NCBI GenBank assembly: GCA_902604905.1
Contig: CACLAN010000001.1
Span: 75,118-139,117 of the forward strand
Source of the DNA: an uncultured Alphaproteobacteria bacterium
GTDB lineage: Bacteria; Pseudomonadota; Alphaproteobacteria; HIMB59; GCA-002718135
Reading direction: 5' to 3'
Length of the DNA: 64,000 bases
The notes beneath the pieces are model-generated. The model ran no database searches. It was not told the origin of the DNA and saw only the letters and a program-made list of their open reading frames with translations. Positions within the stretch are counted from its first letter, which is position 1; each line of letters starts with the position of its first letter. The translations under genes were made by a program, and so were the position numbers. Positions 48,717 to 58,822 of the stretch are shown here, piece by piece.

Positions 48717-49289
48717 TTAATTTAGAGGAATTTTATTATCAATTTTTGATTTTTGATAAATTTCTGACATTTTTTGGTACTCTTCTTTGATCTGATAAAT
48801 TTTATCTGATAATGAGTCCCCTATGCCTAATCTTTTAATTTCTGATAAAATTGAGTAACTCTCCCAATAATCATTATTAATATTGTATTTACCATCTTTG
48901 ATCTTAAACACCTCTCTCAAAATTTTAAGATCGTGCGGGATATGAAAACCTTCTTTTGTGTCAGTATAGGAAAAAAAATAATAGAAATTGTCAAATCCGG
49001 CCCATGTTATAGCTGATAAACACATAGAACAAGGTTGATGTGTACTTATGAAATAATAATCTTTTGTATTAAACAGTTTTTTTTCAAATAAATTAAAAAG
49101 AGTTGAGATTTCTCCATGAAATAAAGGATTTGTGATTTCCTGGTTTGTACCTAGACAAACAAGACTTAGGTCAGATTTTTTAACAATAAATCCGCCAAAT
49201 ATTTTATTTCCTTCATTAATTGAAATTTTTGTTAATGGAATAAGTTCATCTAAAATAACATCTAAAATTCTTTCATAATTTGTTATCAT
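48717..49289 (-). CDS. Cytidine/deoxycytidylate-deaminase-fold zinc deaminase (substrate unknown)
   Basis: HGEISTLFN (H-x-E) and HQPCSMCLSAITWAGF (P-C-x-x-C) zinc/catalytic motifs. 190 aa. Confidence 0.75.
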   Translation of the reverse strand: MITNYERILDVILDELIPLTKISINEGNKIFGGFIVKKSDLSLVCLGTNQEITNPLFHGEISTLFNLFEKKLFNTKDYYFISTHQPCSMCLSAITWAGFDNFYYFFSYTDTKEGFHIPHDLKILREVFKIKDGKYNINNDYWESYSILSEIKRLGIGDSLSDKIYQIKEEYQKMSEIYQKSKIDNKIPLN

Positions 49290-49333
49290 TATGAAATGTT
49301 TGATACTTTATTTATTAGATTTGTCCATAAAAC

Positions 49334-49362
49334 AAAAAAAAAGGACCCAGCAAGCTAGGTCC
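49334..49362 (-). terminator. Rho-independent terminator (minus strand) upstream of the deaminase gene
   Basis: Minus-strand RNA GGACCUAG-CUUG-CUGGGUCC followed by U9 (plus-strand A-run 49334-42). The 8-bp stem is continuous only on the minus strand, because one position is a U-G wobble there and a C/A mismatch on the plus strand. Confidence 0.6.
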
Positions 49363-49445
49363 CTTTTGTGTATCGTGCATTTCCTCCCGATACAATTTAA
49401 TAATCGTTTCCTTTTATTAAATTGATTATTACCTTTGCGTGTAAT
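49334..49445 (-). ncRNA. Candidate about 110-nt structured RNA (sRNA or cis-acting leader/attenuator): three consecutive hairpins ending in the terminator
   Basis: Hairpin 3 is UAAUAAUC-N18-GAUUAUUA (49398-49431). Hairpin 2 is UGUAUCG-GGAGGAAAUGCA-CGAUACA (49369-49394). The terminator hairpin is at 49343-49362. A sigma70-like promoter lies just upstream. The 5' end is not defined. No family recognised. Confidence 0.35.
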
Positions 49446-49450
49446 AATTA

Positions 49451-49480
49451 ATTATAAGATATCTATTTGTTATTTATCAA
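49451..49480 (-). promoter_or_regulatory. Candidate sigma70-type promoter for the structured RNA
   Basis: Minus strand TTGATA (49475-49480), an 18-nt spacer, then TATAAT (49451-49456). AT-rich background makes chance matches likely. Confidence 0.3.
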
Positions 49481-49569
49481 TCAATAAAAAAATGTATTTT
49501 TAAAAGTAAATAATCTATTTTTGTTGATATGTTTGTTAATAAAATGTGCAAAATTAAATTTGATTAAAA

Positions 49570-50676
49570 ATGAATAAAAATTCAAAACTTAATGTCTTAG
49601 GAGTTATGACAGGCACATCAATGGATGCCGTTGATATTAGTTTGATTAATACAAATGGGACTGACTTTGTAAAAATTAAATGTGAAAAATCATATAAATT
49701 TAATAAAAATTATCAAAATACAATAAACAATCTAATAATAAATAAACCAAAAAAAAATAATAAAATTAAAGAATATTTTTTAAAAAAAGATGATTTTGTT
49801 ACAGATATTTTACAAAAAAAAATAATTTTATTTCTGAAACAAAAAAAAATTAATAAAAAAAATATCGATTTAATATCAATTAGTGGGCAGACTGTTTATC
49901 ACGACCCATCAAATAAAATATCTATACAATTAGGAAATGGAAACAAAATTGCAAAAAATCTTAAAGTTAAAACTATAAGTAATTTAAGAGATAATGATAT
50001 TAAAAATGGTGGTCAGGGAGCACCAATTGGATCATATTATCATAAGTTTTTAATACAAAAATTTAAGGAAAAATCAATTATAGTAAACCTTGGAGGTATA
50101 GCAAATTTTTCAACTGTAGTTTCAAGAACATTATTATCATCGGATATAGGGCCTGCAAATTGCTTAAGTGATGATCTTTGCAATTATTTTTTTAAAAAAA
50201 AATTTGATAATGATGGAAACTATGCAAGAAAAGGAAACATTGATAATAAATTAATCGAAAAATTCAAGAAAGATAAATTTTTTAAGAAAAAGTACCCAAA
50301 ATCATTAGATAGAAATTATTTTAGAAATTATTTTAATAAGCTGATTAAATTGAATAAATATGATGCGCTAATGACTGCTAACTACATGACTTATATTGGA
50401 TTTAAAGAATTATTAAAAAAGAAAAAATTTAAGATTAAAAGAATTTTACTTACTGGAGGAGGAAGAAAAAATAAATTACTCAAAGAAATATTAATTAATA
50501 AACTAAATAAAAAAATTGAACTTATTGATAAATATAAAATAAATGGTGATTTAGTAGAAGCTCAAATGTTTGCGTATATTGGCATGAGATCATTTAAAAA
50601 TTTAGAAATAAGTAATAAGAATACTACAGGTGTGAAAAAAAATTTAAGTGGTGGTATTTTATATTTTCCAGATTAA
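49570..50676 (+). CDS. anmK: Anhydro-N-acetylmuramic acid kinase
   Basis: LGVMTGTSMDAVD N-terminal motif (cf. GxMSGTSxDGxD), GGQGAP, TGGGRKN. Confidence 0.85.
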   Translation: MNKNSKLNVLGVMTGTSMDAVDISLINTNGTDFVKIKCEKSYKFNKNYQNTINNLIINKPKKNNKIKEYFLKKDDFVTDILQKKIILFLKQKKINKKNIDLISISGQTVYHDPSNKISIQLGNGNKIAKNLKVKTISNLRDNDIKNGGQGAPIGSYYHKFLIQKFKEKSIIVNLGGIANFSTVVSRTLLSSDIGPANCLSDDLCNYFFKKKFDNDGNYARKGNIDNKLIEKFKKDKFFKKKYPKSLDRNYFRNYFNKLIKLNKYDALMTANYMTYIGFKELLKKKKFKIKRILLTGGGRKNKLLKEILINKLNKKIELIDKYKINGDLVEAQMFAYIGMRSFKNLEISNKNTTGVKKNLSGGILYFPD

Positions 50677-52851: not shown

Positions 52852-53055
52852 TTATTTTTTCTTAATATTAATAGCGTTTTCTTTTCCACGGTTTTCACCG
52901 ATTTCAAATTCAACTGGCATACCCTCTTCTAAAGTATCAATACCAGCAGCTTCTAAAGCTGAGACATGAAGAAAAACATCTTTTCCTCCATCATCATTTT
53001 CTATAAATCCATAACCTTTGGTCGGATTAAACCATTTAATTTTACCACTTGGCAT
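52852..53055 (-). CDS. cspA: Cold-shock protein (CspA family)
   Basis: [31 protein letters not shown] contains the RNP1 (KGYGFI) and RNP2 (VFLHV) motifs. Strong SD AAGGAG at 53064-53069, 8 nt upstream of the start. Confidence 0.95.
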
Positions 53056-58537: not shown

Positions 58538-58822
58538 TTGGCTCTTATACGGAAACTACAAGAAAAAACAAGAAATAATGGGAATAAAAATGTTTAAATT
58601 ATGATAAATAAGAAAAATTATGAGTGCAAATTTGATACACTTATTGTGAAACTATTGGCTATATTTATAATTTTAAATAAAGGTAAAAATGAAACACGTA
58701 GTATTATAGAAAGAATTTTATGACAGTAAGCAAGGTATGCTTTCTATGCGGCAATCATCATTATTGTATTAGTAATCAAGATTTACTATAAAGACTTCAT
58801 TGTCTTAAATTTAATTAATTTT

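Follow-up and report, generated by a model that had tools for sequence, protein, structure and literature searches.

The element analysed here belongs to IMES-4 (RF02037), a small RNA (sRNA) family that Rfam types as 'Gene' and for which we know of no function. The family reportedly came to light in marine environmental sequences, without a cultivated host, in the work of Weinberg, Perreault, Meyer and Breaker (Nature 2009), and it is said to overlap putative small RNAs in the marine metatranscriptomes of Shi, Tyson and DeLong (Nature 2009). In these studies IMES RNAs are reported to be abundant in marine metatranscriptomes. A literature search on the family returned nothing usable. The DNA studied was a stretch of 64,000 nucleotides (nt) of contig CACLAN010000001.1 from an uncultured alphaproteobacterium, hereafter the window, and the element lies on its minus strand in a 280-nt spacer between anmK (49570-50676, plus strand) and a gene for a CDA-fold deaminase (49289-48717, minus strand). 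The length of this spacer is exceptional here: coding sequence makes up 95% of the window, the GC content is 27.9% and the median intergenic gap is 2 nt. An earlier note on this DNA, which had proposed either an independent sRNA of about 110 nt or a riboswitch-like leader of the deaminase gene, was right about the unusual length of the spacer, the plus-strand orientation of the neighbour at 49570-50676, which is anmK, and the 44 nt between the U-tract of the element and the deaminase ATG. The element is a full-length copy of the already known, curated IMES-4 family, and sequence comparison makes it probable (about 0.8) that it is an independently transcribed, constitutively terminated, trans-acting sRNA gene that is conserved regardless of the gene that follows it.

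An Rfam scan of the whole window gave two matches at the gathering threshold, one of which was this element. RF02037, whose gathering score is 48, matched 49448-49369 on the minus strand with 101.7 bits (E 5.7e-16). The match takes in every model position (1-80 of 80), with nothing in the modelled 80 nt deviating. The loops CACGCAAAGG, GGAAAC and AUCGGGAGGAAAUGCACGAU of the element align to upper-case Rfam consensus positions of IMES-4, and every feature of sequence and structure that was tested (score, three covarying hairpins, loops, marine origin) agrees with membership. When 12 divergent loci were re-scanned with Rfam, 14 IMES-4 copies were found at 74-102 bits. The earlier note had called the RNA unassigned and had itself named an Rfam hit to a known family as what would overturn that label; by that criterion the label fails, and the note's comparison with known families by eye had overlooked the match. 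Matches to BjrC68, rpsL_ricks and STnc50 were dismissed, all being under their own gathering scores. BjrC68 (RF02353, known from Bradyrhizobiaceae) matched the third hairpin and the terminator with 23.9 bits against a gathering score of 39, a sub-threshold match in which only the generic succession of hairpin and terminator is shared; the element is no member of that family.

The window element thus has the same three hairpins (P1-P3) and the same conserved loop sequences (L1-L3) as IMES-4. Beyond the Rfam model we find a conserved promoter and a fourth hairpin (P4), a terminator with the nearly invariant sequence GACCUAGCUUGCUGGGUC, and, beyond the family as known, its host lineages, its fixed syntenic position and tandem paralogues. 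The RNA family itself is already known and what is added is descriptive; the additions (promoter, terminator, hosts, locus, tandem paralogues and a contrast between loops and stems) may be already published.

Relatives were collected by two scans. The genome scan used an exact pattern and one genome per species and returned 79 loci, 74 of them real. The metagenome scan, in which the dominant sequence type was excluded and L1 and the P2 loop were left unconstrained, returned 80 loci, 64 of which matched a four-hairpin covariance model (R1) with 82-134 bits, at full length unless cut by a contig end. The 5 genome and 16 metagenome pattern matches that were excluded were chance matches in GC-rich contigs. 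All 74 genome loci belong to Pelagibacterales, Pelagibacteraceae, HIMB59, MarineAlpha5 or genomes labelled only 'uncultured Alphaproteobacteria', the last being single-cell and metagenome-assembled genomes. In total about 140 IMES-4 copies were found, all in SAR11-type marine Alphaproteobacteria. The window itself is SAR11-like in its GC content of 27.9% and in its gcvTHP genes with a glycine riboswitch. The upstream gene was anmK (divergent) or an EamA transporter gene in all loci, and the usual downstream order was deaminase, glycine riboswitch and gcvTHP. IMES-4 thus has a fixed place in SAR11-type genomes, with anmK or EamA on one side and the deaminase-gcvTHP cluster on the other. Scanned viral contigs contained no IMES-4 match, and a phage origin was rejected on this ground. 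No cultured strain was among the matches to the exact pattern, which is a strict one. For strain HTCC1062, Meyer et al. (2009, PMC2704228) list the glycine-riboswitch spacer as immediately flanked by a membrane-protein gene on one side and gcvT on the other. From this layout the strain seems to lack both the deaminase and IMES-4 at this position, which agrees with IMES-4 being confined to uncultured SAR11-type lineages.

The fold of the element is far from chance: its minimum free energy is -35.3 kcal/mol (z = -5.9), and none of 200 shuffled sequences folded as well. Covariation was examined in 41 distinct genome-derived sequences and in 63 distinct metagenomic sequences, the alignment of the latter being fitted to the model. 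In the genome-derived set 94.3% of cells were paired and 23 of 36 pairs had changed on both sides; none of 500 shuffles reached this level of covariation, and sliding the partners by 1-3 columns lowered pairing to 31-45%. The corresponding values in the metagenomic set were 97.0% and 26 of 36. All four helices, terminator included, covary in both sets, and 102 of 103 distinct full-length RNAs fold as four hairpins. Conservation and covariation in homologous regions, which the earlier note had proposed as a check, were thus found in two sets of sequences. The many G.U pairs fix the RNA on the minus strand.

P1 (49425-49448) is an 8-bp hairpin with arms at 49448-49441 and 49432-49425 and the loop L1, ACGCAAAG, at 49440-49433. 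It was 98.5% paired in the genome-derived set, with 4 of 8 pairs changed on both sides, and 97.5% paired in the metagenomic set, with 6 of 8. P2 (49394-49423) has up to 13 bp, arms at 49423-49411 and 49406-49394, and an apical loop with AGGAAAC (49412-49406); it was 88-94% paired, with changes on both sides at 11 of 13 genome-derived and 13 of 13 metagenomic pairs. P3 (49370-49393) is a 6-bp hairpin whose 12-nt loop L3, GGAGGAAAUGCA, lies at 49387-49376 and agrees with the Rfam consensus loop. It was paired in 100% of the genome-derived cells, with 2 pairs changed on both sides, and in 99.7% of the metagenomic ones, and an extra outer U-A pair (49394/49369) is possible. P3 with its 12-nt loop had been recognised from the sequence beforehand, and the hairpin at 49393-49370 bears this out. 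The earlier note had counted three hairpins in all; P3 and the terminator stand, but P1 had been missed and the RNA has four. The first hairpin of that count, which paired UAAUAAUC (49431-49424) with GAUUAUUA (49405-49398), instead takes its two strands from the 3′ arms of P1 and P2. As a candidate, this hairpin (49431-49398) was rejected: it showed no covariation, its pairing of 77.7% is no better than the 75.5% of shuffled controls, and the pairs at its base are broken in 17-21 of the 41 sequences.

The transcript is predicted to end at P4 (49334-49367), an intrinsic terminator with 9 core pairs and an A-U extension, a CUUG loop at 49354-49351 and U9 at 49342-49334. The terminator scan placed the core at 49363-49343 and counted 13 pairs with the A-U extension. 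P4 was 95.9% and 99.3% paired in the genome and metagenome sets, with 6 and 5 pairs changed on both sides, respectively, and the U.G pair of its stem was kept in 38 of 41 sequences. The stem, CUUG loop, U9 and U-G pair are as the earlier note had described them. Among the 103 distinct RNAs, the terminator hairpin had a mean of -14.2 kcal/mol and a U-tract of 7-10 nt, mostly 9. A terminator was found in every copy not truncated by a contig end, and all copies carry the U7-10 tail and an A-rich linker before P4. An intrinsic terminator, a U7-10 tail and an A-rich linker are also seen in Hfq-type sRNAs, a likeness that is generic and does not discriminate. The terminator sequence GACCUAGCUUGCUGGGUC (49343-49363 in the window) is nearly invariant across lineages in which the other stems have diverged, a degree of conservation that exceeds what termination alone would need. 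At some loci a convergent PBP_like_2 gene ends about 1-10 nt from the U-tract (L045, L052, L077 and 22 metagenomic loci, for example L083, 4368-5227). Because the A-rich linker 5′ of the stem is a U-run on the other strand, P4 probably terminates transcription bidirectionally where this gene converges on it.

Promoter conservation was assessed in 58 upstream regions that were mutually <80% identical, aligned without gaps and numbered from the first base of P1. The conserved -35 element, TTGATT in the window (49479-49484, minus strand), has its TTG at -36 to -34, with T at 0.79, T at 0.86 and G at 0.55. The -10 element follows 17 nt after it at a position fixed across relatives (-13 to -8); it reads TATCTT in the window (49456-49461, minus strand; consensus TAaaTT), with its T, A and final T conserved at 0.78, 0.78 and 0.79. 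An A conserved at 0.91 lies at -1, 7 nt past the end of the -10 element, and is the predicted start (49449). The earlier note had proposed TTGATA-18-TATAAT (49480-49451, minus strand), with TATAAT (49451-49456) as a -10 paired with TTGATA at 49480-49475. This pair is present and scores 11 of 12 positions, but the conserved promoter lies 4-5 nt upstream and TATAAT is specific to the window, most relatives reading TATTTT or TAATTT at its position. As the functional -10, TATAAT was probably mis-registered by 5 nt relative to the conserved promoter; the start that it sets would land inside the 5′ arm of P1. Promoter-like matches as such occur at the chance rate in this AT-rich stretch (12 found, 11.6 expected). 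From the conserved A to within the U-tract, promoter geometry predicts an IMES-4 transcript of about 112-116 nt (49334-49449, minus strand). An independent minus-strand sRNA of about 110 nt that ends at the U-tract, the first of the two options in the earlier note, is accordingly well supported as a prediction by the conserved promoter and terminator, by covariation and by the variety of downstream genes described below. The full transcription unit is thereby defined as a promoter, about 115 nt of RNA and a conserved terminator.

Sequence constraint in this RNA falls on the loops rather than on the stems, and the analysis as a whole argues against a cis-regulatory role. L1 and L3 are upper-case in the Rfam consensus and the GGAAAC of L2 is nearly invariant. 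L1 and L2 were conserved also in the metagenome set, where the search pattern did not impose them; L1 was CACGCAAAGG in 54 of the 63 readable metagenomic copies. The clearest contrast comes from two loci with tandem copies, L004 (3256-3335 and 3474-3553) and L071 (1889-1968 and 2107-2186), in which the copies lie head to tail at a distance of 218 nt and each has a promoter and a terminator to itself. These paralogues have diverged in the stems of P2, P3 and P4 and at one or two pairs of P1, yet loops L1-L3 are identical, which points to the loops as the functional surface. The arrangement resembles that of PrrF1 and PrrF2 of Pseudomonas; the sequences are unrelated, however, and most IMES-4 genomes, that of the window included, carry a single copy. 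A subgroup of loci with anmK directly upstream (L081, L087, L095, L109, L112, L118, L123 and L126, and also L113) has a variant L1 that is one base longer, CACGUYAAAAGG, or CUCUUCAAAAGG in L113, with the remaining loops unaltered. A kissing interaction between L1 and L3 (GCA with UGC) was considered and rejected: it would have only 3 bp, and no covariation signal is possible in loops that are invariant or fixed by the search pattern.

The mode of action that best explains these features is the following. A sigma-70-type promoter, TTGATT-17-TATCTT, would start transcription at about 49449; P1-P3 would serve as scaffold hairpins presenting the three invariant, purine-rich loops L1 (ACGCAAAG), L2 (AGGAAAC) and L3 (GGAGGAAAUGCA); the strong intrinsic terminator, P4 with U9, would close the transcript at about 112-116 nt; and the RNA would act in trans through its loops. 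Its most likely action would be that of a mimic or decoy of ribosome-binding sites, or of a partner of a factor that recognises such sites, be it a translational regulator protein or the anti-Shine-Dalgarno sequence of the 30S subunit; loop-mediated pairing with mRNAs is the alternative. AGGAAAY is common to L2 and L3, and L1 has AAGG but no GGA. Because L2 and L3 share this motif and all three loops resemble Shine-Dalgarno sequences, a decoy or a protein- or ribosome-binding RNA is favoured over pairing by a linear seed. In its most specific form the proposal is that the loops AAGG, AGGAAAC and GGAGGAAAUG titrate a translational regulator or the 30S anti-Shine-Dalgarno sequence, with the terminator hairpin as a second protein-contact site, so that IMES-4 would be a SAR11-type Csr/Rsm-like switch; we regard this version as speculative and rather unlikely in its full detail.

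CsrB, RsmY and RsmZ provide the nearest analogues, being small terminator-ended RNAs with GGA-containing, Shine-Dalgarno-like motifs in hairpin loops. In the window element about 26 nt separate the L2 motif AGGAAAC from the L3 motif GGAGGAAAU, which would be a suitable distance for a CsrA dimer. In contrast to the 4-22 motifs of those RNAs, only two or three are present here, there is no similarity in sequence or by covariance model, and the neighbourhood DNA contains no csrA. The likeness is one of working principle only and is offered as an analogy. If the proposal were true, SAR11-type cells would possess a Csr/Rsm-like global post-transcriptional switch; these organisms rank with the most abundant in the ocean and are famously poor in regulators. 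In any case, the present results narrow the search for the partner of IMES-4.

The RNA gene is independent of the gene downstream of it. In 25 loci (3 genome, 22 metagenome) the convergent PBP_like_2 gene stands between the RNA and the deaminase. The 4 tandem copies are followed by the second RNA copy or by the gcvT glycine riboswitch; in both tandem loci the deaminase is lacking and the riboswitch begins about 80 nt after the Rfam match of the second copy, followed by gcvT. Other genes lie downstream in three loci, namely an FKBP-rhodanese gene in L019 and L036 and an RseP-like gene in L111. Five loci (L004, L071, L019, L036 and L111) thus contain no deaminase in the neighbourhood DNA examined. 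In every locus with an atypical downstream gene the RNA, its promoter and its terminator are intact. Because synteny is generally conserved in these genomes, such exceptions are informative, and co-location alone weighs little.

Several observations nevertheless weigh against an independent, trans-acting sRNA. Every copy occupies the same syntenic position, and the deaminase comes immediately next in 66 of the 77 genome copies and in 32 of the 55 metagenome copies that could be resolved (98 of 132 overall, about 74%). In eight lineages (L121, L128, L135, L148, L049, L032, L101 and L133) the deaminase ATG lies 12-16 nt past the U-tract. Such a spacer leaves no room for a separate promoter, so that in these lineages the RNA and the deaminase are very probably co-transcribed by read-through of the terminator, and the element may there also contribute in cis. 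The invariance of L1 and L3 in the genome set is partly imposed by the search pattern. Complements of the loops occur in the 64-kb window at chance frequency only. Neither csrA, hfq nor proQ was found in the window and 159 loci, about 1 Mb of single-neighbourhood DNA, in which a csp gene was the only candidate of this kind; to our knowledge CsrA is generally absent from Alphaproteobacteria.

The short spacers bear most directly on a dual function, in which an abundant trans-acting sRNA has a leaky terminator that sets a low, constitutive transcription of the deaminase without any sensing, so that one promoter yields two products. Besides the lineages that lack room for a second promoter, this possibility gains from the extreme compactness of SAR11-type genomes (the window being 95% coding with a median gap of 2 nt) and from the fate of the spacer in L019 (7525-7700) and L036 (4001-4180). 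There, the first approximately 36 nt of the window-type post-terminator spacer, TAGACAAAT...AAAGTAACA included, have been kept although a different open reading frame (ORF), that of the FKBP-rhodanese, comes next. The retained spacer travels with the RNA gene and may contain a weak promoter-like sequence, TGGACA-16-TATCAA, at about 49327-49300 in the window. However, efficient termination is to be expected from a hairpin of about -14 kcal/mol with U9 behind it, and in lineages where the spacer measures 88-141 nt or a PBP gene is divergent, the deaminase evidently relies on a promoter of its own. A dual function is therefore improbable as a general account, if somewhat less so than the leader considered next. 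Where the gene abuts the terminator, read-through probably does feed the deaminase, and this supply looks like a by-product of genome compaction.

The other cis-acting explanation is the second option of the earlier note, a leader that controls the CDA-fold deaminase. In its broadest form it would be an attenuator, riboswitch-like or protein-dependent, that tunes P4 for the deaminase and perhaps for gcvTHP beyond it. The layout is indeed typical of attenuators, since a promoter, a structured RNA, a terminator and an ORF within 12-44 nt follow one another in many lineages as they do at terminator-type riboswitches; the deaminase comes next in most genome and resolvable metagenome copies; and in the window, where the spacer is 44 nt, no sigma-70-like match of at least 9/12 lies between the terminator and the deaminase ATG. 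Co-location in itself says little where synteny is conserved anyway. The same downstream gene throughout, as an attenuator leader would have, was not what was found: the intact RNA unit persists across the convergent gene in 25 loci, the loss of the deaminase in five and tandem duplication. To look for sequestration of the terminator, we folded nascent transcripts, cut ahead of the 3′ arm of the terminator, of the 103 distinct RNAs, and found no anti-terminator pairing and no conserved alternative helix. The 5′ arm of the terminator was free in these folds, with a mean pairing probability of 0.21 and at most 1 nt paired in 81 of the 103. Unlike terminator-type riboswitches, IMES-4 has no anti-terminator and no enclosing P1 helix; its three hairpins are independent, and no enclosing helix ties them to the terminator. 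Because the downstream genes vary and no anti-terminator was found, we reject the riboswitch or attenuator leader, which we consider distinctly improbable, in favour of the independent sRNA gene.

Two further explanations have next to no probability. A short coding gene, in which GGAGG and then AUG in L3 open an ORF (21 codons in the window) through the terminator, draws on the resemblance of GGAGGAAAUG to a Shine-Dalgarno sequence with a start codon, but the spacing to the AUG is only 2-3 nt, the frame stops after 4 codons (AUG CAC GAU ACA UAA) in lineages with EamA upstream and shifts with the U-tract length (7-10) among near-identical copies, and substitutions track base-pairing rather than codon structure; the small ORF, conserved neither in length nor in frame, was rejected. 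A mere terminator or insulator, with hairpins that arose by chance and an RNA that has no function, would suit an AT-rich genome, in which short hairpins and promoter-like hexamers are common, and its hairpin could end the convergent PBP gene in some lineages, but it is effectively refuted by the covariation of P1-P3, together with the strand-specific G.U pairs, the z of -5.9, the 101.7-bit match and loops that are invariant across lineages with diverged stems.

Some features around the element were also recorded. The deaminase gene (48717-49289, minus strand) lies outside the RNA and may receive read-through from it; its product matched Pfam PF00383 (E 3.4e-10) and no NCBIfam model, and its relationship to the yeast-type cytosine deaminases and the guanine deaminases in the PDB is only a distant one (E about 1e-6). 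The 193-nt gap between the deaminase stop and gcvT contains a glycine riboswitch aptamer (RF00504, 48605-48690, minus strand, 58.6 bits), and gcvT (48523-47399) is followed by gcvH and gcvP. A single glycine aptamer reached the threshold in the window, compared with two adjacent matches in L052. A second long spacer in the window (58538-58822, 285 nt), between a divergent tatA-like ORF and an amidotransferase-like ORF, gave no Rfam match at the gathering threshold. A cold-shock protein gene at 52900-53049 (minus strand) encodes a product with 54% identity to E. coli CspA over 50 residues, and most loci keep the csp gene at a distance of about 3.5 kb from IMES-4. In Pelagibacter, Csp proteins have been proposed as post-transcriptional regulators (PMC2864753).

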